Shown: positions 1 to 10,491 of the stretch, piece by piece
Layout of the letters: every line of letters begins with the position of its first letter
How positions within the stretch are numbered: the stretch's first letter is position 1
Assembly (NCBI GenBank): GCA_033549025.1
Contig: JAWSUS010000041.1
Span: 1-10,491 of the forward strand
Length of the DNA stretch: 10,491 nt
Direction: 5' to 3'
From: Desulfuromonadales bacterium
GTDB lineage: Bacteria; Desulfobacterota; Desulfuromonadia; Desulfuromonadales; SZUA-540
Notes under the pieces: model-generated
What the model was told of the DNA's origin: nothing
Database searches by the model: none
Seen by the model: the letters and a program-made list of their open reading frames with translations, nothing else
Program-made: the position numbers and the translations under genes

Positions 1-7
1 CGGTCAT
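1..7 (-). CDS. 5' end of a divergently transcribed gene running off the window (product unknown)
   Basis: Minus strand reads AAGGAGGTTGAAA-ATG-ACC: near-perfect Shine-Dalgarno (plus 13-20 acctcctt) with ATG at plus 5-7. Only two codons are visible. Confidence 0.6.
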
Positions 8-92
8 TTTCAACCTCCTTGGACATGGGAATATTATCCCAAATCAGTGTCCAAGAAAACTGGAGCCGCCCCACAGGCTACAAAAGGAAAGG

Positions 93-518
93 TTGCGGCA
101 CTTTGTGAAACTTCTATTCAGTGATTTAAGATCGGGAACATCTGTGAAAAAGCTGCTGCCAGACCTGAGCAAATACCTTTTGGTCAGTGTTTTTGGCACG
201 TTGATTCATTATGGTCTCATGACGGTCCTGATCCAGCAATTTTCTGCAACCGTGTTGCCAGCTTCCACCGCAGGGGCGATAACAGGTGCCCTGATCATTT
301 ATCTTCTGAATTATTTCTGTACCTTTCACAGCCGAAAAAAACACCTGGAGTCAGTGTCCAGGTTTTTTCTTGTCGCCGCTTTGGGGTTGGTCATAAACGG
401 ACTCACCTTAAAAGCTATACTTGGCTGGCTGGGGGGGCACTATCTTATCGCTCAATGCCTTGCCACCGTCGCTGTTTTTGGATTCAGCTTCACCATAAAT
501 CGGACCTGGACGTTCTAA
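93..518 (+). CDS. GtrA-family membrane protein (putative undecaprenyl-phosphate-sugar flippase)
   Basis: About four hydrophobic segments; KYLLVSVFGTLIHYG, YLLNYFCTFHS, RFFLV and INRTWTF follow the GtrA pattern; lies directly upstream of a GT2. The start is uncertain (TTG 93 or in-frame GTG 144). Confidence 0.85.
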   Translation: MRHFVKLLFSDLRSGTSVKKLLPDLSKYLLVSVFGTLIHYGLMTVLIQQFSATVLPASTAGAITGALIIYLLNYFCTFHSRKKHLESVSRFFLVAALGLVINGLTLKAILGWLGGHYLIAQCLATVAVFGFSFTINRTWTF

Positions 519-530
519 AGGAGCCAGAAC

Positions 531-1568
531 ATGAGAAAACCGTCCCTCAACAAAGCGCCAAAGGCTGTTCAGAAAGAAACATTGCTGACGGTTGTGGTGC
601 CGGCCTACAACGAGCAGGAAGTCATCCTTGAATTCCACCGCAGGCTTTCCGCCGCCCTGGAAGAGGCCGACGTAGACCACGCGGAAATCCTCTATGTCAA
701 TGACGGCAGTCGCGACAATACCCTGCCCCTGCTGTTGGAGCTGATGAGAGAGGATCGGCGCATAGAGGTCCTTGATCTGAGCCGAAACTTCGGCAAGGAA
801 GCGGCGATGACGGCCGGGTTGGATCACGCTCAAGGTGATGCGGTGATCATGATCGACGCCGATTTGCAGGATCCGCCGGAACAGATTCCCGACATGGTCA
901 GAGAATGGCGTCAGGGTTTCGATGTGGTTTACATGCGGCGCCTTAGCCGGGAAGGGGAAACCTGGCTGAAAAAGACGACCGCCCGCGCTTTTTATACGCT
1001 CATGGCCCGTGTGAGTCGTGTCAAGGTGCCCGAGAATGTGGGTGATTTCCGCCTACTGAGCCGGCGGGCGGTCGATGCCTTGAAGCAGCTGCCTGAGCGG
1101 ACCCGGTTCATGAAGGGACTTTTCGCCTGGATCGGTTTTCCGGCGAAAGAGGTTCCCTACCACCGCGATCCCCGCTATGCAGGTGTCACCAAGTGGAACT
1201 ACTGGGGATTGTGGAATCTCGCTATCGAAGGAATAACCTCATTTACCGTGGCGCCTCTGAAAATAGCCAGCTACATCGGTTTTCTGACTTCGACGGCGGC
1301 GCTGCTTTACGGACTGTTTGTCCTGACCAAGGCGCTGTTATTCGGCGATCCGGTTCCTGGTTATCCAAGCCTGATGGTCGTGATTCTATTTCTGGGTGGC
1401 CTTCAGCTTCTGGCCATCGGCGTCGTTGGTGAGTACCTTGGGCGAATGTTTCTCGAAACCAAGCAGCGGCCCATTTACCTGGTGAACAGTCACCACCGTA
1501 CAGCCGTCGGGCGGGTTGGCCTGAAACCTTTCGATTTGGCCCGCAGGGAACTTGAGGCGTTATCATGA
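531..1568 (+). CDS. Glycosyltransferase family 2, GtrB/ArnC-like polyprenyl-phosphate glycosyltransferase
   Basis: VVVPAYNEQE, VNDGSRD, SRNFGKEAAMTAGL, IDADLQDPP (DxD), GDFRLLSRR, two C-terminal TM helices, GEYLGR. RBS AAGGAG at 518-523. Confidence 0.95.
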   Translation: MRKPSLNKAPKAVQKETLLTVVVPAYNEQEVILEFHRRLSAALEEADVDHAEILYVNDGSRDNTLPLLLELMREDRRIEVLDLSRNFGKEAAMTAGLDHAQGDAVIMIDADLQDPPEQIPDMVREWRQGFDVVYMRRLSREGETWLKKTTARAFYTLMARVSRVKVPENVGDFRLLSRRAVDALKQLPERTRFMKGLFAWIGFPAKEVPYHRDPRYAGVTKWNYWGLWNLAIEGITSFTVAPLKIASYIGFLTSTAALLYGLFVLTKALLFGDPVPGYPSLMVVILFLGGLQLLAIGVVGEYLGRMFLETKQRPIYLVNSHHRTAVGRVGLKPFDLARRELEALS

Positions 1569-3130
1569 AATTCCAATTGACATCGATTCAACGTAAGGTG
1601 CTCTGGTCGTTGTTCGCGGTGGTAGCGATAGTTCGTTTGTTGTCGCTGGGAAGCTATCCGCTGGCCGACACCACCGAGGCGCGCTATGGCGAAATCGCCC
1701 GGCTTATGGCAGAGACGGGGAATTGGATCACGCCGCAGATTCATCAGGGTGTTCCTTTCTGGGGAAAGCCCCCTTTGTCGACCTGGCTTTCGGCCCTTTC
1801 CATTCGCTTATTTGGAGTGAATGAGTTTGCCATTCGCTTGCCGTCGTTTCTACTGGCTCTTCTTGTTCTCGCCATGGTTTATTTCATCGCCGTCAGACAG
1901 CGTGGGCGAGATTTCGCCCTGGTGGCGACCGTTGTCCTGACCCTCTCGGTTCTTTTCTTCGTCAGCAGTGGGGCGGTCATGACCGATTCCGCCCTGCTTT
2001 TAGGCACGACACTTTCCATGATCGCCTTTTGGCGGATCATGACGTCAGAGGAACTCAGTGCCCTAGTTTGGGGGTATCTCTTTTTTGTCGGTCTGGCAAT
2101 CGGCCTCCTTGCCAAGGGCCCGGTGGCTTTGATTCTTGTCGGGCTGCCAGTGGGGGGCTGGGTCGTCTGGCAAAGACAGTGGGACCAGGTCTGGCACCGC
2201 CTTCCCTGGTTCTCGGGTCTTGCGCTTTGTTTTGCCTTGAGCGCACCCTGGTATTATCTGGCGGAATTAAAAACCCCGGGGTTTCTCGATTATTTCTTGA
2301 TTGGTGAACACTGGAAGCGCTTTATGGTTTCAGGCTGGCAGGGTGATCTTTACGGCAATGCCCACTCTCGGCCCCTTGGGACCATCTGGCTGTACTGGCT
2401 GGCAACAGCGCTGCCGTGGTCCCTGGTTTTGCTCGTCTCTTTTTTCAGGAAAGAGTTCCGACAAAAGGCTGTCTTTTTGCTCCGGCGCCGCGACGGCTGG
2501 GGGGTGTATCTGGTGCTGTGGTCTGTCGCCCCCATGGTGTTTTTCACCTTGGCCGGCAACATTCTGTGGACTTATGTCCTTCCAGGCCTCCCGGCCTTTG
2601 CCTTGCTTGTCGCTGAGTTGATGTTGCCGGGCCAGCCCGAGAGTACGGTAAAAACGATTTCGCCTGATCCTGGTGTCGGGAAAGTGATTGGGATAGCGGT
2701 CACCACCACGCTTTTGTTTGTATCGGCGTGGATGTTGATAGCGGGCCAAATTGTTCCGCCCAGAAAATGCCAAAAGGGACTGATTACAACTTACCAGGCT
2801 GCCCGGGCCGAGTCGGCCGGAGACTTGATCTATCTGTTCAAACGGCCTCACTCTGCCGAGTTCTACTCCCGGGGCCAAGCGATTTTAGTGGAACAGCCCG
2901 CAGAGGTGGAACGGTATTTTCAAAACAGTATCGATGATTACTTCGCGATCAAAAAAGGGGACTTGAAGCGGCTGCCCGCGGAAACTCGCAACCGTGTAAC
3001 AAAGATCGGCGAGTTCAACGGCTACTATCTTTTGAAGGAAAAATCACGTTATGATGAAGAAAAGAATTCCCGGCTTCTCCCGGAAAGCCCTGGGGCTTTC
3101 CGGGAGAAGCCGGAAGTTGGAATCATTTGA
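1565..3130 (+). CDS. ArnT/PMT-family (GT-C fold) integral membrane glycosyltransferase
   Basis: DTTEARYGEIARLM, WITP, FWGKPPLSTW, EFAIRLPS, LLAKGP, PWY, YVLP motifs and many TM segments. ATGA overlap with the GT2 stop. Confidence 0.92.
   Translation: MKFQLTSIQRKVLWSLFAVVAIVRLLSLGSYPLADTTEARYGEIARLMAETGNWITPQIHQGVPFWGKPPLSTWLSALSIRLFGVNEFAIRLPSFLLALLVLAMVYFIAVRQRGRDFALVATVVLTLSVLFFVSSGAVMTDSALLLGTTLSMIAFWRIMTSEELSALVWGYLFFVGLAIGLLAKGPVALILVGLPVGGWVVWQRQWDQVWHRLPWFSGLALCFALSAPWYYLAELKTPGFLDYFLIGEHWKRFMVSGWQGDLYGNAHSRPLGTIWLYWLATALPWSLVLLVSFFRKEFRQKAVFLLRRRDGWGVYLVLWSVAPMVFFTLAGNILWTYVLPGLPAFALLVAELMLPGQPESTVKTISPDPGVGKVIGIAVTTTLLFVSAWMLIAGQIVPPRKCQKGLITTYQAARAESAGDLIYLFKRPHSAEFYSRGQAILVEQPAEVERYFQNSIDDYFAIKKGDLKRLPAETRNRVTKIGEFNGYYLLKEKSRYDEEKNSRLLPESPGAFREKPEVGII
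3070..3113. repeat. Perfect 21-bp inverted repeat with a 2-nt spacer inside the 3' end of the ArnT-like gene
   Basis: ccggcttctcccggaaagccc (3070-3090), tg, gggctttccgggagaagccgg (3093-3113) are exact reverse complements. Confidence 0.95.
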
Positions 3131-3138
3131 GAGGGAGT

Positions 3139-3816
3139 ATGAGAGTTCTGCTTATTGAGGATGACGATCGAACCGCCGACTTTGTTTCCAAGGGGTATCA
3201 ACAAGCCGGGTATGCAGTGGATCGTGCAGCTAACGGGGTAGATGGCTTGTTTATGGCCTCTCATACCCCTTACGATATTGCGGTGATCGATATTATGCTG
3301 CCCCGGCTGGACGGGCTGACGGTTATCGAAAAGCTCCGTGAGCAAAAGCTCAGCCTCCCCATAATTGTCGTGAGTGCGAAAAAGTCCATTGACGACAGAA
3401 TTCTGGGACTTCAATCCGGCAGCGATGACTATCTTGTCAAACCCTTTGCCTTCTCTGAGTTGTTGGCCCGTACCCAGGCCTTGCTGCGCCGGGTCAACCA
3501 TATCGCTGAACCCATGACTCTCCAGGTCGACGACCTGGAGATGGACGTGGTCCGACGCAAAGTTTTTCGCTCCGGTCGCGAAATCGACCTGCAGCATCGG
3601 GAATTCGCCCTGCTCGAGTATCTGATGCGCAACGCTGGCCGGGTCGTTTCCAAGGCCATGATTATGGAGCACGTGTGGGATTATAATTTTGACCCCGAGA
3701 CCAACGTGGTCGAGTCCCGTATTTGCCGCCTGCGTGATAAAATAGATCGTTCTTTTTCGCGTCAGCTCATCCATACGGTGCGTGGCGTCGGTTACCTTCT
3801 TGAGGCCAGGGGGTAG
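3139..3816 (+). CDS. OmpR/PhoB-family response regulator (CusR/CzcR-like)
   Basis: Receiver motifs LLIEDD, IDIMLP (phospho-Asp) and DDYLVKPF; winged helix with REFALLEYL, VW, NVVESRICRLRDKID, IHTVRGVGY. ATG 3139 after GAGGGAG is preferred over TTG 3127. Confidence 0.95.
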   Translation: MRVLLIEDDDRTADFVSKGYQQAGYAVDRAANGVDGLFMASHTPYDIAVIDIMLPRLDGLTVIEKLREQKLSLPIIVVSAKKSIDDRILGLQSGSDDYLVKPFAFSELLARTQALLRRVNHIAEPMTLQVDDLEMDVVRRKVFRSGREIDLQHREFALLEYLMRNAGRVVSKAMIMEHVWDYNFDPETNVVESRICRLRDKIDRSFSRQLIHTVRGVGYLLEARG

Positions 3817-3817
3817 T

Positions 3818-5197
3818 ATGATACGCAGTCTGAGCGTACAGCTGACCCTCCGCTTTCTGGTGCTTTTTACCTTTCTTTTTTTATCGGCGTTCACCTTTGT
3901 CTATTGGCACCTGAAGTCAACTCTGCACGACAAGATTGATGAAACGCTCACCAAGAATGCTTTCGAGATCGCCAAAACTCTTCGGACTGAAGGTCTGAAA
4001 GAAGCGATCAAGGAAGTCCATCTTGAAGCGGAGGCCGAGGGAGTCGGCCGCGTCTTTATTCGCTTTTTTACGCCCGAACAGGAATTGATCACAACTTCGG
4101 ATTTGACAGCATGGTCGGAGCTGAACGTCAAGCCCAGGAAACCGGCCTCGGAAACCGGCCAGGTGTTAGATACTATCACCCTGCCTGGAAGACATCATCA
4201 GGTCCGTCTTCTGCATCAGGGCCTCGACGGAGGGTATCTCCTTCAGATGGGTTTTCTGCTGAAAGAGGATGATCGGCTGCTCGAAGACTTCCGTAGTATT
4301 TTTGCTATCGCATTCGCCATAATGATCCTGGGCGGCGCTCTGTCTGGCTATTTAATTTCCAGGCGGGCCATGAAGGGTGTGGAACGGATCAGGCAAACCG
4401 CCGACCGGATAGGCCAGGGAGACTTTTCTCATCGGGTGGAGCTGGAGAAAGACGGTGAAGAAATCGAGAATTTGGGGCGGGCCTTCAACCAGATGCAGGA
4501 TCGAATCCAGGTTCTCATCGGCGAATTAAAGGATGTCACCAACAATATTGCCCACGACCTGCGAAGTCCTCTGACGAGGATCCGCGGTCTGGCCGAGACG
4601 ACACTGACAGGGAAACAAGAGCTGGCCGAGTACCGGAATATGGCCGGGACAATCATCGAAGAGAGCGACAGGATGGTCGGCATGGTCAACACCATGCTCG
4701 AAATCGCTGAAACCGATGCCGGGATTCGCGAGATCCCAAAAATATCAGTGAATCTGGGGGATATTGTAATCGATGTCGGGGAACTGTTCTCCACTGTTGC
4801 CGAGGATAAGGGGGTCGAGCTCCAGGTTTTGGTCGCTTCCGCGCCTTTATGTGTTCAGGGTGATCGACCCAGGCTGCAAAGGGCTGTCGCCAATCTCCTT
4901 GACAATGCGATTAAATATACTCCAGCGGGGGGAAGGGTGACTATCCAGGCCGAGGCGGAAGGGGCTCAGACCCTTATTTCCATCGCGGATACCGGCATTG
5001 GTATTCCGGCCCAAGAGCAAAAGTCGATCTTTAACCGGTTTTACCGGCTGGACCAGAGCCGCTCCACCCCTGGGGCTGGGTTAGGACTCAGCCTGGTACA
5101 GGCGGTGGTCAGGGCGCACGGCGGAATGGTACAAGTTGAAAGCGAGGTTGGACGGGGTAGCGTCTTTACTATTAGACTGCCGAGGAAACCGATATAA
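3818..5197 (+). CDS. Two-TM HAMP sensor histidine kinase (CusS/CzcS-like)
   Basis: Two TM helices around a periplasmic domain, HAMP (EIENLGRAFNQM), H-box IAHDLRSPL, N-box NLLDNAIKYT, G1 DTGIGI, F-box IFNRFYR, G2 GAGLGLSLV. ATG 3818 lies 1 nt after the regulator stop. Confidence 0.95.
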   Translation: MIRSLSVQLTLRFLVLFTFLFLSAFTFVYWHLKSTLHDKIDETLTKNAFEIAKTLRTEGLKEAIKEVHLEAEAEGVGRVFIRFFTPEQELITTSDLTAWSELNVKPRKPASETGQVLDTITLPGRHHQVRLLHQGLDGGYLLQMGFLLKEDDRLLEDFRSIFAIAFAIMILGGALSGYLISRRAMKGVERIRQTADRIGQGDFSHRVELEKDGEEIENLGRAFNQMQDRIQVLIGELKDVTNNIAHDLRSPLTRIRGLAETTLTGKQELAEYRNMAGTIIEESDRMVGMVNTMLEIAETDAGIREIPKISVNLGDIVIDVGELFSTVAEDKGVELQVLVASAPLCVQGDRPRLQRAVANLLDNAIKYTPAGGRVTIQAEAEGAQTLISIADTGIGIPAQEQKSIFNRFYRLDQSRSTPGAGLGLSLVQAVVRAHGGMVQVESEVGRGSVFTIRLPRKPI

Positions 5198-5238
5198 ATC
5201 AGGCTTGTGTAAAGGGCAAAACACTTGTTTGTTTAATT

Positions 5239-7053
5239 TTATCCATGATGGGTCTGAATAATTTGCTTAAAAGCATCGTAAATTTTTTCGCCAAAAGCGA
5301 TGTGATCCTTGCCTCTATGCTGCATACTCTGTTTAGGATAAGGATAGATAATCCCATCATTATCCCAAACCCCATTGAGTATTGTCGCGGCGGCAACCAT
5401 ATCACGCAAAACGGGAATAGCATCATCGTCAGAATCATAACCTGCAGCAACCAGGAGAAACTTAAATTTGTCGGCAGGCCGCTTTTCAAATTCCAAGAGA
5501 TAGCAAATCCCCTCTTCAAAGTATATTTTAGCTGTAAAAACAATGCGCTTTCGCTTTTTCCTTTTCAAAAGATAAGTGAAGGGGCCAAGTTTACGCTGTT
5601 GATACTCCGTAGGTAGAAAACTTAGGGTGTGCTCCTTGAAAAAGGCCACCAACCCGAATAAGGAGATGGTTTCCCAGCGCCATCTCTTTTCGGCGCTCAA
5701 GCGCTCTAAGTAGTCGATGGTTTTTAGCAACGTCCACGTATTATCCTGGCCATCTGTTTCGTGCTCAGTCTCTAAATTCACCTGGCCTACAGGCCAATCA
5801 TGGCCCTCGGGGTCACCTGTCGACCAAAGTACCTCTGCGGGGTCGAATCTCACCATCGGCGGCGGTGCCCCTTTTCTTCCGATATACTCGTTTTTTGTGT
5901 TAAAGACGCGGGTCAACTTTTTCCGCTGAAGATCTAGGAATTGTCTGACTGGAGTGATGGGATTTGCTCTTATGTTCTGCACCCAGGAAGGGTCATCATG
6001 GTGGGTGTTCCCGAGATCCCAGTCGGTCTTGTCGATAGGTTCCTTCTGTGGACGATTTCCCCCTTCGCTCTGTTTTTTCCCTTCAGGGTTTCCATCTCCT
6101 GGGATTCCGTCATTGTCTCGGTCGTATTCCAAGTCTTCGAAGGGAAATTTCCCAGAACAGCTCAGTATCCTGAAAACCAAAAACCTTCTTTTGCCCATGG
6201 AATGGATGAATTTCCCTTGGAGGGACAATTTGGTCTCGCCTTCAAAAGGGAACTTCGCGACAAGGCTGGGCGGAGCTTCGTTTATGGCGGCCCGTTGGGC
6301 TGTCTTATAGATCGCCCTGGCTTCGAAGTCAGCCTTTTGAGAGAACGCGATTCGAGCAATTACCCAAGCATCAATTCCATCCATAGCGGCGCGCAATCGC
6401 AAGTGGGACAAGCCAGGTTCTTTGGCCGGTCGCATTTCGTTCGGATAGGTCTCGCTGGGATTGTACAGAGGGTTTGAAACCGACTCCATGTCTCCGCGGA
6501 GAATTAGCTTTGATAGTTTGGAGCTCAAGCCATAATAGAAGCGAAAAATCTCAGCACAAGGAATGAGAACGGCTAAAGGGACATTTTTATAGTTAATCGC
6601 AAGAATTTTCCCCAAACGAAAAGCTGAGCCATGCCCGATGAAATGCTCGGCACTTATGAGGTATTTACCGTTTTGACTATAACTGGACGAAACAACCTCG
6701 GTGGTTTCGTCTGAAATGTAAGTAGGAGATAAGTTAATCTTTTCTGGCTGATGCCAGGGTTTGCTTGAAGGTTTCCCGTACTGCCAAAACGAACCGATAT
6801 ACAGCTTAGGAAAGTATCCTACACGAATATTTTCAACCACGGTTTTCTGATGGTCAACGGCATTGTTATGGAAGGGGTCAGGGGAGCGCTTTCGCCAATC
6901 GTCGTGAAGAGGCTTGAATACTACCAATATCCGGGGTTCGGTTTTATGAAGACCGAGTCCACCAAACCAATCCAGACGCCATATGCGACCATCCATTATC
7001 GGCGACAGTTTTTCGCCGCTCCATCTTTGCTCACCTAGAATTGAAAATGCCAT
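5239..7053 (-). CDS. TnsE-like protein (remote homolog of the Tn7 target-selection protein)
   Basis: 604-aa ORF with RBS GAGGG. Its motif series is colinear with Tn7 TnsE as I recall it: PRILVVFKPL~WRIFVWFNPM, LIPCAEIFRFYY~HIPQLELARSLF, TKLSLQGK..FLVFRIL~WKLHVKGR..YLVEEIV, a charged linker, WSTGDP~VSTDEP, RIVFTAKI..CYLLEFE~RVIKAVGV..FVLLEVD, and terminal W...H. Comparison by eye only. Confidence 0.7.
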   Translation of the reverse strand: MAFSILGEQRWSGEKLSPIMDGRIWRLDWFGGLGLHKTEPRILVVFKPLHDDWRKRSPDPFHNNAVDHQKTVVENIRVGYFPKLYIGSFWQYGKPSSKPWHQPEKINLSPTYISDETTEVVSSSYSQNGKYLISAEHFIGHGSAFRLGKILAINYKNVPLAVLIPCAEIFRFYYGLSSKLSKLILRGDMESVSNPLYNPSETYPNEMRPAKEPGLSHLRLRAAMDGIDAWVIARIAFSQKADFEARAIYKTAQRAAINEAPPSLVAKFPFEGETKLSLQGKFIHSMGKRRFLVFRILSCSGKFPFEDLEYDRDNDGIPGDGNPEGKKQSEGGNRPQKEPIDKTDWDLGNTHHDDPSWVQNIRANPITPVRQFLDLQRKKLTRVFNTKNEYIGRKGAPPPMVRFDPAEVLWSTGDPEGHDWPVGQVNLETEHETDGQDNTWTLLKTIDYLERLSAEKRWRWETISLFGLVAFFKEHTLSFLPTEYQQRKLGPFTYLLKRKKRKRIVFTAKIYFEEGICYLLEFEKRPADKFKFLLVAAGYDSDDDAIPVLRDMVAAATILNGVWDNDGIIYPYPKQSMQHRGKDHIAFGEKIYDAFKQIIQTHHG

Positions 7054-7199
7054 TGTTTTCCCTCTGAAGAACCAGGAAAAAGCCAGTTTCAGTTGGCAAA
7101 AAAAGGGGCTAGATTAAATTTTGAGGGCACCGAAAAGGAAAATCCAAAAGCCAGAGATATCGGCAAGGATGACATCTTTAGCATGAACAGTCCTCGGCA

Positions 7200-7252
7200 A
7201 AGATAAAAATACCCACCGGCAAGGAAGGTGGCAGTTCTCCCTCGCCGGTGAG
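7200..7252 (-). terminator. Probable intrinsic terminator after the 72-aa gene
   Basis: Imperfect GC-rich stem caccggcaagg / cctcgccggtg, followed on the minus strand by GGTATTTTTATCTTT, just past the stop at 7269. Confidence 0.5.
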
Positions 7253-7268
7253 CAGGCATGCGTTGTGC

Positions 7269-7487
7269 TCAGCTAGTGTGGCAAGGCCTGCAGCAGTAAA
7301 TGCAACCATTGACCCTTGCCGTGGGCCATTTTTGTTTTGCAAGAGCGACGGCTCCATGACATGACGTGTGAGTTCCAAGATCGATTTGATTCGCTGCGGC
7401 TGGCATAAAAGAACAACCGGTGGAGGCGTTATGAACCTCATGATCTCCGTTTGACTGAGGATTTTTATTTAGGACGAATCTGGGCAT
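7269..7487 (-). CDS. Small Cys/His-rich conserved hypothetical protein (72 aa, probably metal-binding)
   Basis: AGGAG 8 nt before ATG 7487. The sequence N..Q.NGDHEVH...GC..MP...N...LG....C..AV..AK......NGC.YC...CH matches a small uncharacterised protein type I recall from accessory regions. Confidence 0.85.
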   Translation of the reverse strand: MPRFVLNKNPQSNGDHEVHNASTGCSFMPAAANQIDLGTHTSCHGAVALAKQKWPTARVNGCIYCCRPCHTS

Positions 7488-7678
7488 AATTTTGACTCCT
7501 ATAGCGTTCAAGCTAAAGCTTTTTGATTGACGTTGCCGTGGACAGTAAAAGATCCCAGTGCAGGCTGGGCTTCGTTTGCTGTCACCGGGCTCTCATGTCT
7601 TGGGGGTTTGATTTTTGAGGAGTTTTGCAGTTTACGGTGACATGGGTACCTCCTTCGACAATAGCCGCAATTTGCGGG

Positions 7679-7707
7679 TTGCGATGCCGAAGGAGGTGGG
7701 GTATAGT
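7679..7707 (+). promoter_or_regulatory. sigma70-type promoter of a putative antisense RNA
   Basis: TTGCGA (7679-7684), 17 bp, TATAGT (7702-7707). Confidence 0.6.
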
Positions 7708-7713
7708 TGCCAA

Positions 7714-7805
7714 CGTCAAACGCCAGTTGGCCGATTCCCCCTCCTTCGGTCACCATGGTTTTAAGAGCCCCTGCGATGCCCTGCCCGGCAACGTAGGGGC
7801 TTTTT
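7714..7805 (+). ncRNA. Putative ~90-nt cis-antisense (counter-transcribed) RNA
   Basis: Bounded by the promoter above and the terminator below; fully complementary to the 5' leader of the leftward transcript predicted to start near 7806. Start position is inferred. Confidence 0.5.
7763..7805 (+). terminator. Intrinsic terminator
   Basis: agcccctgcgatgcc (7766-7780) pairs with ggcaacgtaggggct (7787-7801), with one G-U and one mismatch, followed by a T run. Confidence 0.8.
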
Positions 7806-7812
7806 CATTGCC

Positions 7813-7840
7813 ACGCTACCATATACGGAAAACCTGTCAA
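7813..7840 (-). promoter_or_regulatory. Leftward sigma70-type promoter
   Basis: Minus strand TTGACA (7840-7835), 16 bp, TAGCGT (7818-7813) with an extended TGn element. Confidence 0.55.
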
Positions 7841-7846
7841 GATAAA

Positions 7847-7894
7847 AACCTATATTTTGTGTTGATCCTAAATTTTAAACACAACATGTAGTGT
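7847..7894. promoter_or_regulatory. Tandem NrdR-box-like operators
   Basis: aacCtAtATtTtGtgt (7847-7862) and acaCaAcATgTaGtgt (7879-7894) both fit acaCwAtATaTwGtgt at the conserved positions; their starts are 32 bp apart. Confidence 0.7.
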
Positions 7895-8018
7895 TTTGGT
7901 AGGGGTTGGTTGGGCCCGAGTTGTGTTTTTGCGCTTTTTCTGGTGCCCCAGTCCTGTAGCTATACAGGTCAAATCCTCTCTCACCCTCAGTCAGCTTTGT
8001 AGACAGAAGCCAGAAACA

Positions 8019-8093
8019 ACCATATCACGACAAGATAGGTGGGAAAATATCAGGAAATTCCCGATAGAGATTCTGGCAAGGATTTGTTATGGT
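8019..8093. promoter_or_regulatory. Palindromic operator TATCAGGAAATTCCCGATA flanked by divergent extended -10 elements
   Basis: Palindrome at 8048-8066; TGnTATGGT on + (8088-8093) and on - (8024-8019), 31 and 33 bp from the dyad centre. Confidence 0.55.
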
Positions 8094-8216
8094 GCGATCC
8101 TTTGTCTTTGGCTTAGGGGGAGAATCCACCTAGAGGGGCAGTTCGCCAAGTCGCAGGTGGAGCCCTTTTGATTTGCTCCCGCCCCTCTGCAAATTTGCAA
8201 TAAAACTGGACACGGG

Positions 8217-8771
8217 ATGATGAAAACAGCACGCCTTTTTCAGTCGGAAAGCGATCTTTACAGCAAAATCCCGACGCTTCTTGACTTATGGGTTGCACGA
8301 GTGGCCAACTCGTTCAGGCTTAGGGAAGAGTCGGCCCAGGGCATAGTCGCGGGGGCCTTTGCCATTACGCTTTTTTGTCATTTTCAGGAAATACTCGATG
8401 ACGCCACATCCTGGCTGGGGATAGAGCGAGGACAGGAGATTGTATCTGCAAACGCCATCGCAAAGAGCCTTGGCGATTTGCGTTCCCGCGATCTGGCTCG
8501 CCTAGGCTACTGGAATGTCGTCGATTTTTGGGCTGGGCCGCTTAGTAACGCCTCTGATGTGGATGTCCGACAATGCCGAAAGGCTGTCGATGCTGCGCTG
8601 TTTCTGGCTCTGTGCCGGGATGGCCTTGCGTTGGCGGAAACCATCGTGAGTTTGGCGCAAGTTCTTGAGAGAGGTGTTCTTTCCGGGGCAGAGGATCGAT
8701 CAATATCAGATATTGTCCGACGGCGTTGTCCAGGGCGATACCCAAGACCTCAGAAACGAAACACGAAATAG
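8217..8771 (+). CDS. Hypothetical protein, 184 aa, probably alpha-helical
   Basis: Longest ORF in the interval, protein-like composition, downstream of the 8048-8093 promoter. RBS is weak and no family was recognised. Confidence 0.6.
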   Translation: MMKTARLFQSESDLYSKIPTLLDLWVARVANSFRLREESAQGIVAGAFAITLFCHFQEILDDATSWLGIERGQEIVSANAIAKSLGDLRSRDLARLGYWNVVDFWAGPLSNASDVDVRQCRKAVDAALFLALCRDGLALAETIVSLAQVLERGVLSGAEDRSISDIVRRRCPGRYPRPQKRNTK

Positions 8772-8796
8772 CCAAATTTCTCCCTAAGGTTTTTTA

Positions 8797-8910
8797 TGTC
8801 GGGAATTTCCTGAGGCGACAGGCATGGTCTGTTGTGCTAGGGTGGCAGAAGGCCATGTTTCCTGAGTTTATTGTGATTTCTTAAAGCCCGACCCCTATGT
8901 TCAGGGAGAG
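8797..8910 (+). repeat. Copy A of a ~110-bp diverged direct repeat (operator + promoter + leader)
   Basis: 22 bp identical to copy B (8802-8823 vs 10202-10223); 42/50 identical over 8801-8850; alignable to about 8910. Contains GCGACA-17-TAGGGT with extended TG. Confidence 0.85.
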
Positions 8911-9094
8911 ATCGAATGTTCAGAAAAGCTGATTTTTGCTGCTGCGCTTTCATTGCGGACATATCTTTTTCTGGCATCAATGTTTGCCACCCCAGACACG
9001 CAGGTTTAAATGGCACCCTCAGGCAGGAAATATCACTGAGACCCGCGCCGGCTAAAGGATGCGGTATGTGCAAGGCATTTAAGCCTCGATAGTC

Positions 9095-9592
9095 ATGAAG
9101 ACCTTTTTATATATTCTCGTTTTCATTGTCCAGGCCGGCTTTGCGGCTGCTCATCCCGGTGGCCTTGATGCCAGCGGTGGCCATTACAAAAGGGCAACAG
9201 GAGAATACCATCTACATCAGGACAAAGACCCCTCCATAAAAACTGCCTCTCTGGTCCAAGATTCACCAGCTCTTTCCGCTGCGGCCCGTGAACTAAAAAT
9301 CAACGATTATTTCCGCTCTGCCAATGAAAAAGTCGGTGCCTTCGATTGCGATCTGGTCATTCACGAGCGAGACGTCTCAACTTCCCTCAAGGCGGTCGTT
9401 AAGGCCCGGGATGGGTATCGCTGCGTGATCTGCGGCAGTACCCACCAGCTTGAAGTCGATCACCGAAGAGCCCTTATGAATGGTGGGGACAATGCCGAAG
9501 GAAACCTCGCAACGCTTTGCGACGACTGCCATACGGCAAAAACGAGGATGGATAATTCGTTGCGGCGGAAGAGGGAGAGAGTTTGCCGTTGA
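9095..9592 (+). CDS. Exported HNH endonuclease-domain protein with an N-terminal YHYH-type motif
   Basis: Signal peptide MKTFLYILVFIVQAGFAAA, then HPGGLDASGGHYKRATGEYHLH; C-terminal RDGYRCVICG..LEVDH..GGDN..NLATLCDDCH (zinc-binding HNH). Confidence 0.85.
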   Translation: MKTFLYILVFIVQAGFAAAHPGGLDASGGHYKRATGEYHLHQDKDPSIKTASLVQDSPALSAAARELKINDYFRSANEKVGAFDCDLVIHERDVSTSLKAVVKARDGYRCVICGSTHQLEVDHRRALMNGGDNAEGNLATLCDDCHTAKTRMDNSLRRKRERVCR

Positions 9593-9757
9593 GCTTCCCA
9601 CAGCACAGAGAACGCAAAAGAGACGGCGATTATGTCTCTGGATCCACGAAAGGGTAGTGATCGACTCAGAGTTCCCCGGTTCTCTTTGCGTAGAAAACTT
9701 CGATAGGGTCCAAAGTTTCTATCAAACAATTTTTCTATATCCAAGAAGGAGCGAGAT

Positions 9758-10115
9758 ATGAAAAAACTTGTACTAACCATTTCATTACTAGCTATTTCCT
9801 CAATTTGTTTTGCCGAAGGATTGATCCACCCACTTGATTTTAAAGGGACAGAGGCAGAAAAAAACAGGTTATTGCCTTGATTGAACAAAACGTCAAAGAA
9901 ACATATACAGCACTCGGCATGGGCGACCCAGCGACATTAAGAATGATGGAAAAAACAGAATTGGATTTTTTAAACAGCTTACACAAGTAACAAACAGACA
10001 TCTGCTTGATAGTGTAATTGACCAATATTGCTCAATAGGGCTGTGCGACTACAATACCATCCTAATGATGTACAAAGAACAGGAACGCGAGCCGAATAAT
10101 AAACTTCAATGGTAA
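9758..10115 (+). pseudogene. Secreted hypothetical protein (~119 aa) broken by two homopolymer frameshifts (or sequencing errors)
   Basis: RBS AAGGAG, ATG 9758, signal peptide MKKLVLTISLLAISSICFA. Adding one A to the A7 run (9858-9864) and one T to the T6 run (9966-9971) gives a continuous ORF ending ...NNKLQW-TAA at 10115, directly before a terminator. Confidence 0.8.
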
Positions 10116-10119
10116 GTCA

Positions 10120-10152
10120 AAAGAGCCTTGTCTGACAACGACAAGGCTCTTT
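10120..10152 (+). terminator. Intrinsic terminator, possibly bidirectional
   Basis: Perfect 13-bp stem aaagagccttgtc / gacaaggctcttt with a 7-nt loop, 4 nt after the stop at 10115. Confidence 0.85.
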
Positions 10153-10196
10153 CAGTCAGGCAGGAAAGAAAAGTGTGGCCATCGTGAGCTCATCCA

Positions 10197-10310
10197 TATC
10201 AGGAATTTCCTGAGGCGACAGGCGTGGCTTGGCGTGCTAGGCTGACAGAAAGGGCATATTTTCTGAGTTCTTTGCAATTACTCGAAGTCGAGTCCTGTGC
10301 TCAGAAAGAA
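10197..10310 (+). repeat. Copy B of the diverged direct repeat (operator + promoter + leader)
   Basis: TATCAGGAATTTCCTGAG palindrome followed by GCGACA-17-TAGGCT; exactly 1400 bp from copy A. Confidence 0.85.
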
Positions 10311-10491
10311 AATTCACTCCTGATTTTACTGTGGGAGGCCAGTAGTCACCAAATATGTTTAGCCGCTTCTCTTCTCTCGGAACCTAAGCCTGAATTTGAG
10401 GCGGGCAATAAAGCCTGTAGCGGAACCGGTTCCTTGGACACAAGTTTAGATTATGCCGCCTGACGGATTTCGTCGGGCGACCGGAAGCCGT

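Follow-up and report, generated by a model that had tools for sequence, protein, structure and literature searches.

Introduction

Type I toxin-antitoxin (TA) loci such as hok/sok and ldr/rdl, and the leaders of plasmid ctRNA systems, carry a convergent promoter within the leader, from which an RNA of about 90 nt with an unpaired 5' tail and a terminator is made, and they use anti-Shine-Dalgarno (anti-SD) switching. In the C4-icd-ant system of phage P1, a small RNA blocks translation of a short leader gene, leading to premature termination. The CI RNA of phage P4 is a small RNA that pairs with the leader and brings about premature termination (PMC4825925). A ribosome held at the stop codon of tnaC or speFL shields the Rut site (PMC12360218). 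Termination at a Pro-stop is impaired, the strong C-terminal dipeptides being those with Asp, Glu, Pro, Ile or Val before the Pro; Ser-Pro is not among them (PMC3985003). CreT of P. aeruginosa consists of a Shine-Dalgarno (SD) sequence, M-K-P-P-stop and a hairpin; Pro-to-Ser and Pro-to-Leu mutants were tested, toxicity being lost in the Pro-to-Ser ones, and both prolines are needed (bioRxiv 10.64898/2026.06.02.729485). With dATP/ATP bound, NrdR recognises a pair of boxes spaced by some three helical turns (PMC9110341).

Each component of the cassette described here has precedent, and the cassette is a variation on known antisense and leader-ORF control. It lies in a stretch of 10,491 nt from a Desulfuromonadales bacterium (assembly GCA_033549025.1, contig JAWSUS010000041.1, positions 1-10,491, forward strand), which was analysed as a whole and is called the window. 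With type I TA and ctRNA loci it shares, by prediction, the convergent promoter, the antisense layout of about 90 nt and the anti-SD switching, but neither a hydrophobic toxin nor a Rep protein follows the SD, and the nascent state is predicted to be open and the mature state mostly locked. The P4 CI and P1 C4 RNAs are cut from the target strand and have two pairing sites, whereas here an RNA from the opposite strand is predicted. Searches of the full-text literature, mostly by title and abstract and with thin coverage of subscription journals, returned no Pro-stop minigene controlled by NrdR or by an antisense RNA. A term search of the accessible parts of PMC2864571, supplement included, gave no matching motif, and the word "antisense" is absent from the CreT preprint (bioRxiv 10.64898/2026.06.02.729485).

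Anatomy of the cassette

Eight distinct full members of the family, the window included, were compared. The features of the window, in the direction of the leftward transcript, are:

7879-7894, no strand assigned: distal NrdR-type box ACACAACATGTAGTGT, 32 bp from the proximal box, from a genome scan for box pairs
7847-7862, no strand assigned: proximal NrdR-type box, 6 nt before the leftward -35
7813-7840, minus: predicted leftward promoter TTGACA(7840-7835)-16-TG-N-TAGCGT(7818-7813), below the scan threshold, with a predicted start near 7806
7714-7806, plus: predicted antisense RNA of about 94 nt, with an unpaired 5' tail, a C-rich-loop hairpin complementary to the decoy, and an intrinsic terminator
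7740-7754, minus: decoy GGUG-A-CCGAAGGAGG, predicted partner of the anti-SD in the nascent RNA
7709-7731, minus: inner hairpin GCCAAC/GUUGGC, arms 7709-7714 and 7726-7731, 48/48 cells paired
7687-7697, minus: anti-SD ACCUCCUUCGG, from its helix partners and folding
7679-7707, plus: antisense promoter TTGCGA-17-TATAGT, from a promoter scan, invariant in the eight-member alignment, its spacer encoding the anti-SD
7665-7677, minus: small hairpin CCGCA/UGCGG in the interval between anti-SD and SD, arms 7665-7669 and 7673-7677, 36/40 cells paired, one two-sided change
7648-7657, minus: SD CGAAGGAGGU, with AAGGAG 6-7 nt 5' of the ATG in 8/8 members
7632-7643, minus: minigene ATG TCA CCG TAA (Met-Ser-Pro-stop), the only ORF that the guarded SD starts, ATG at 7643
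7592-7631, minus: C-rich, G-poor, weakly structured 40 nt (C/G 13/4), candidate Rho loading site
7536-7588, minus: 3' hairpin, core CCCAG/CUGGG at 7554-7569, with a short U-run, from scan and folding
7269-7487, minus: small gene for a Cys/His-rich protein of 72 amino acids (phrog_4298), its SD at 7496-7500 and its start 144 nt downstream of the minigene stop
5239-7053, minus: TnsE-like gene of 604 amino acids, from comparison of its C-domain with the TnsE C-domain 5d16

The initial annotation of this DNA was built on two mutually exclusive 10-bp helices, decoy:anti-SD and anti-SD:SD. Both are present: 7687-7696 is a perfect complement of 7740-7749, and 7688-7697 of 7648-7657. None of 300 dinucleotide shuffles of 7632-7840 produced a 10-nt segment flanked on each side by a perfect complement, the maximum being 8 nt. 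The two hairpins that it had placed inside these helices were located at the arms given above, and the minus-strand order that it gave, decoy, anti-SD, SD and then the ATG at 7643, was found as described. The leftward RNA (7808-7630) folds with a z-score of -5.45.

All parts of the switch are conserved in the eight members. In the decoy helix, 110 of 112 cells are paired, with two one-sided G-U changes and no two-sided change; the lack of the latter is expected with the anti-SD doubling as promoter spacer. Two-sided covariation across the switch helices is minimal, so that, where covariation among homologs had been called for, pairing is seen to be kept while two-sided changes are scant. The loop of the inner hairpin is the most variable part among members (mean unpaired probability 0.39-0.73). 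A variable loop facing the 5' tail of the antisense RNA would suit a specificity toehold, and this loop is likely the toehold for that tail; a YUNR U-turn was seen, by eye, in only four of the eight target loops.

On the plus strand, a terminator scan places the core of the terminator at 7779-7798, with a T-run to 7806. The predicted 94-nt RNA forms two hairpins (z-score -5.84); its first stem, of 7 bp, has 56/56 cells paired and carries a C-G to U-A change in three of the eight members. Promoter-like sites are not in excess in the scan (2, against 1.5 in shuffles). At the predicted leftward promoter, TTGAC and TGnTAnnnT are present in all eight members, with a spacer of 16 in four of them and 19 in the other four. 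The proposal of a convergent promoter and terminator bounding an RNA of about 90 nt, which covers the decoy and excludes the anti-SD, agrees with the 94-nt RNA predicted at 7714-7806. Its further point, that this RNA ends where the leftward transcript begins, is matched in sequence by the end of the T-run and the predicted leftward start, both at or near 7806.

One sediment metatranscriptome contains a 237-nt contig over 7629-7865 at a depth of 2.6, with overlapping contigs on to 8112. It stops 3 nt past the minigene stop and reaches upstream past the promoter; as it is strandless and may be DNA, we do not take it as support for either RNA. The suggested Rfam search assigned the cassette to no family, the best match being the ar7 sRNA (RF02342) at 22.6 bits against a gathering threshold of 60. 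The Rfam C4 antisense RNA model gave no match up to E 5-10, and the rdlD model matched the antisense RNA weakly (E 1.5).

The Pro-stop minigene

The ORF that follows the SD has three to four codons in all eight members and ends in Pro-stop in every one: three members, the window among them, encode MSP*, three MRSP* and two MHPP*. There are three synonymous differences (last Pro CCG or CCT, Ser TCA or TCC, stop TAA or TAG), while non-synonymous differences are confined to inner positions, plus one in-frame length difference of 3 nt. Identity in the core is 70-94%; beyond the stop, the next 100 nt sort into three groups that are only about 50% alike. Judged by these patterns, the minigene is under coding-type constraint. 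The cassette is missed by gene callers. Other SD-ATG-Pro-stop sites in the same genome lie inside genes and were rejected as minigenes, being chance sites.

The initial annotation had likened the locus to ctRNA/rep control. The antisense and anti-SD parts of that comparison are supported by folding and conservation, but no rep-like protein gene would be gated directly, only the Pro-stop minigene, and neither a rep gene nor a rep leader peptide lies downstream. No small hydrophobic protein toxin follows the SD in any of the eight members.

Predicted open and locked folds of the leader

Folding was calculated at equilibrium on truncated RNAs, and does not describe kinetics. A window RNA too short to include the SD is predicted to pair its anti-SD with the decoy; once the minigene has been transcribed, the RNA is predicted to refold so that the SD is locked, the antisense RNA being unnecessary for this. 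Applied to all eight members, the calculation predicts decoy:anti-SD pairing at the moment of SD emergence in seven, and a locked SD without antisense RNA in six for RNAs reaching 60 nt past the stop. The exceptions are L038, predicted to be locked even when nascent, and L004 and L042, predicted to be open when mature. With the antisense-covered part forced to be unpaired, the anti-SD:SD pairing probability is 0.74-0.99 in all eight.

The idea that antisense binding frees the anti-SD to lock the ribosome-binding site is supported by folding in eight of eight members and by conservation, with the amendment that the open state is predicted to be transient and that six of the eight lock unaided. 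Since most mature RNAs are predicted to lock without the antisense RNA, the choice between open and locked is probably made during transcription.

NrdR-type boxes upstream of the leader

Box pairs were scored against an NrdR consensus with our own weights, and the binding sites are putative. On this scale the pair in the window scores 31.7, the best of nine above threshold in the genome, and the pair upstream of nrdD scores 29.2; the highest score in three shuffled genomes was 27.4. All eight full members have a box pair with a spacing of 31-32, ending 6-7 nt ahead of TTGAC and with unrelated spacer sequences; in the broken member L005 a weak pair was all that the script detected. The nrdD promoter of the host has a matching box-to-TTGACA layout, its pair ending 8 nt before TTGACA, and the host genome contains nrdR, nrdD and rho. 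The cassette therefore resembles the NrdR regulon in having two palindromic boxes 31-32 bp apart by a promoter of nrdD-like layout. It differs in its target, here the leader of an island minigene and not a ribonucleotide reductase operon. NrdR binds such pairs with dATP and ATP, so that the promoter would be expected to be released when dATP is low. Where the initial annotation had proposed a burst of expression on entry into a new host, the conserved box pairs point to nucleotide status as a main input of the cassette.

Some related observations were made in passing. The nrdD match in the host (L084, G000:C13:20658-22418) contains one TGA stop. Ahead of a ParA-like gene (G000:C30:19116) is another NrdR-like pair with a high score, its boxes 42 bp apart. 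In another genome (G128), locus L017 has at about 1500-1560 an NrdR-box-like 16-mer identical to the distal box of the window; it sits between cas1/cas2-like ORFs and an apparent CRISPR repeat (both labelled by eye).

The downstream region and its genes

In the 40 nt after the minigene, C exceeds G by at least 5 in all eight members, against 6.5% of 40-mers in the whole genome, a genome-wide background uncorrected for intergenic composition. A hairpin follows at the equivalent site in all eight, with -19.5 to -28 kcal/mol in the homologs, across three unrelated sequence groups. No sigma70-like promoter was found between the minigene stop and the first gene in any of the eight.

The first gene in the window, that of the 72-residue protein, matches phrog_4298 (E 9.5e-24) and has 36 homologs at 55-79% identity, with 16 plasmid records. 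In the seven homologous cassettes the first gene encodes a 70-residue Zn-ribbon protein and begins 121-136 nt after the minigene stop, a distance similar to the 144 nt in the window though the proteins differ; it is followed by a gene for 56-57 residues (phrog_12550) and then by one for 87 residues (phrog_23950), listed in six of the seven. The same leader was absent upstream of relatives of the downstream genes in L054, L088, L104-L106 and L109-L113; the check covered L054, L109 and L110 with four of 21 viral loci, and three of 16 plasmid records.

For the 604-residue protein, searches by sequence, in the Atlas and with PDB profiles yielded no name. The C-domain of its low-confidence model (mean pLDDT 41.6) superimposes on 5d16 with Z 10.7 and an rmsd of 3.6 over 134 aligned residues, the next row having Z 6.0, and one of five relatives matches the TnsE_C profile (E 0.024). 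The N-terminal part resembles OB-fold proteins (Z 4-5.5). Four relatives and nine weak plasmid matches were found, and no tnsABC genes accompany the TnsE-like gene within the window. It is possibly the second gene of a read-through transcript.

Distribution and genomic setting

Among 233 genomes of the order, searched at the DNA level, two full relatives (L004 and L006) and one broken one (L005) came to light. Fifteen of the 233 genomes had a DNA match; among the matches listed, 11 were short (20-35 nt) and contained no cassette. A scan of metagenomes returned 10 loci, of which six were members and five distinct; L037, L039, L040 and L043 were dropped as chance matches and L041 is a duplicate of L035. 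The search pattern for metagenomes included the antisense -10, without the -35, and the anti-SD; for the five of eight members found with it, conservation is independent evidence only in the remaining parts. The members are few and related, and the seven homologs, which have one island segment in common, do not form independent cases.

Four pattern scans of viral contigs gave no match. A pattern search of 401 genomes of the phylum gave one match, by chance, and a scan of genome contigs gave seven, all by chance and apparently in coding DNA. Although L004 and L006 match its pattern, the latter scan did not pick them up; the scans are therefore not exhaustive and the family may be larger. No member was added by models R1 (151 genomes of the order) and R3 (151 of the class and 151 of the phylum), and three congeners that were searched have no cassette. 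Searches of plasmid and phage DNA gave short matches only, with no plasmid record above 15% of the cassette.

Each genome has one copy. In two complete genomes the cassette lies behind an RmrA-like HTH-peptidase gene and a gene for 161 residues, amid SIR2-HerA and restriction genes. The 161-residue protein has no Pfam match; we take it to be PIN-like. TraD, TraF, TraH and a transglycosylase are encoded in the vicinity of the cassette of G119. No cas genes were seen among the scanned ORFs of the window or the selected neighbours in G053 and G119. The cassette is patchy island cargo, known from one order and from unassigned metagenome contigs.

The broken member L005 is cut just past the decoy, at about 1600, where short tandem repeats of the GAAGCGG type begin; its antisense promoter and minigene are missing. 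L006 is a mosaic with the 5' type of L036/L038 and the MRSP 3' part of L004, and in the window an L004-type 5' part is joined to an MSP minigene. Comparison of the members suggests recombination within the cassette.

Elsewhere in the window, 8796-8850 and 10196-10250 form a 55-nt direct repeat, 84% identical and 1400 bp apart, of which the genome has no further copy. It opens with a near-palindrome, present again at 8047-8064 and 8381-8398, and its two copies lie on either side of a YHYH-HNH gene and a small gene that seems to be frameshifted. The repeats are possibly cassette recombination sites or operator sites. The YHYH-HNH gene (9095-9592, plus strand) encodes 165 residues, with an N-terminal signal-like stretch before the two domains. 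A palindrome resembling CCTGTAGCTATACAGG lies at 7953-7970, between the cassette and a divergent ORF of 184 residues at 8217 that has no family match.

Possible functions

We consider it quite probable that, at its core, the cassette places a Pro-stop minigene, downstream of NrdR boxes, under an antisense switch. As to how this core is used, our tentative preference, at a little short of an even chance, is for an attenuator that is induced through NrdR and given its threshold by the antisense RNA; a ribosome on the minigene would shield a Rho site while at the Pro-stop and allow read-through. The inferred mechanism relies on both transcripts, on binding by NrdR, on a pause, on Rho and on read-through, and would run as follows. 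When dATP is plentiful, NrdR would hold the leftward promoter low, and a constitutive antisense RNA would use its 5' tail and C-rich loop to catch the scarce transcripts. By occupying the decoy it would free the anti-SD, which would pair with the SD; the minigene would be empty of ribosomes, Rho would load on the C-rich stretch, and the 3' hairpin would mark the end of the RNA. Transcripts would exceed the antisense RNA after a fall in dATP, or in a cell still without antisense RNA. Ribosomes would then load co-transcriptionally, dwell at the Pro-stop and shield the candidate Rho site, and transcription would run into the small island genes downstream.

We favour the attenuator because of the open-then-locked order of the predicted folds, the C-rich stretch in three unrelated sequences, the steady distance to a gene for which no promoter was found, and the presence of rho. 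Sequence features of the attenuator type are there: a leader ORF, C-rich open RNA and downstream genes with no promoter of their own found. A Rho site is normally about 60 nt or more, and the free C-rich stretch, at only about 40-55 nt, is short for one. The small downstream genes also occur without the leader, and the spacer between -35 and -10 is not uniform. As in the Rho attenuators tnaC, speFL and cruR, a ribosome at the leader stop would stand by a C-rich site with genes downstream, and TnaC also ends in Pro-stop (PMC12360218). In those systems, however, longer peptides sense a ligand, whereas here there are three to four codons and initiation is apparently regulated, not stalling. Against the attenuator, TnaC-type stalling needs a longer peptide; and with Ser-Pro outside the strong dipeptides, the pause may be weak.

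A doubtful but substantial alternative is a type I-like TA system. The minigene RNA would be a toxin that traps ribosomes or peptidyl-tRNA-Pro, with the cis antisense RNA as its antitoxin, and release of NrdR at low dATP, as in phage DNA replication, would trigger growth arrest. The model here is CreT, which needs an SD, a 15-nt mini-ORF and a 3' hairpin and is still toxic with a 12-nt M-P-P-stop (bioRxiv 10.64898/2026.06.02.729485). The cassette resembles it in its strong SD, Pro-stop mini-ORF of 12-15 nt, downstream hairpin and defence setting; the combination of SD, mini-ORF and 3' hairpin is found in all eight members, and the two with a 15-nt M-H-P-P-stop fit the M-x-P-P-stop form of CreT. 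The layout of the antisense RNA is Sok/Rdl-like, in line with the weak rdlD match, homologs lie in defence islands (RmrA-like and PIN pair, SIR2-HerA, restriction genes), and the cassette of the window has been relocated to a new neighbourhood. CreT requires two consecutive Pro codons, and CRISPR-Cas together with CreA shuts off its promoter; six of the eight members here, the window included, have Ser-Pro, and the predicted means of control are NrdR boxes, an antisense RNA made in cis and a switch between decoy and anti-SD. In six of eight members the mature RNA is predicted to be locked, which sets it apart from a stored toxin mRNA. Also against a TA system are the single copy per genome and the gene that always follows 121-144 nt downstream with no promoter of its own found. 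Attenuator and toxin are not exclusive, since the terminated leader RNA is itself an SD, a minigene and a hairpin.

It is improbable that the ribosome on the minigene acts on RNA structure and not on Rho, freeing the next ribosome-binding site or stabilising the mRNA. In several members the downstream SD and ATG do lie inside a predicted hairpin, and the minigene or the adjoining 3' bases can pair with the decoy flank, which would drive the locked fold. The next start, however, is more than 120 nt away, outside the footprint of a ribosome, and the bias of C over G in three unrelated 3' sequences would go unexplained. The chances are slimmer for the plus-strand RNA as a trans-acting sRNA whose C-rich loop blocks other SDs, with the leftward RNA as its NrdR-controlled sponge: the stable two-hairpin fold with its exposed CCCCCUCCUU loop and the weak ar7 likeness would suit such a role, but the loop sequence varies, its run is broken in L038, and the anti-SD, the real SD and the conserved Pro-stop minigene, all outside the plus-strand RNA, are left unaccounted for. 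Least likely is a decayed remnant of an antisense-controlled leader that has lost a longer gene, as the break in L005 and the small number of members might suggest, because SD-ATG spacing, frame and Pro-stop persist at 70-94% core identity while the flanks diverge, and no member has a longer ORF.

Implications

The cassette would likely let island genes switch on only when deoxynucleotides are low, and would possibly stall the ribosomes of the cell only under the same condition. A bolder and rather unlikely proposal is that islands borrow NrdR as an infection alarm: a drain on dNTPs, by phage replication or by nucleotide-depleting defences, would let the promoter overrun the antisense RNA, and the three-codon Pro-stop RNA would jam ribosomes. 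If so, this would be a protein-free abortive-infection toxin-antitoxin system, independent of CRISPR.

If our reading of the cassette holds, a natural Pro-stop minigene of three to four codons would act beyond CRISPR loci as a unit of regulation or of toxicity, and the MSP*, MRSP* and MHPP* series offers a natural test of whether such a minigene grades from regulatory pause to toxin. The combination of NrdR boxes, a strong SD and a Pro-stop also provides a search recipe for hidden modules. NrdR is known mainly for ribonucleotide reductase genes; here an RNA threshold device would be added to its control, and the expression of a mobile island, or growth arrest, would be tied to the dNTP pool through a repressor of the host.
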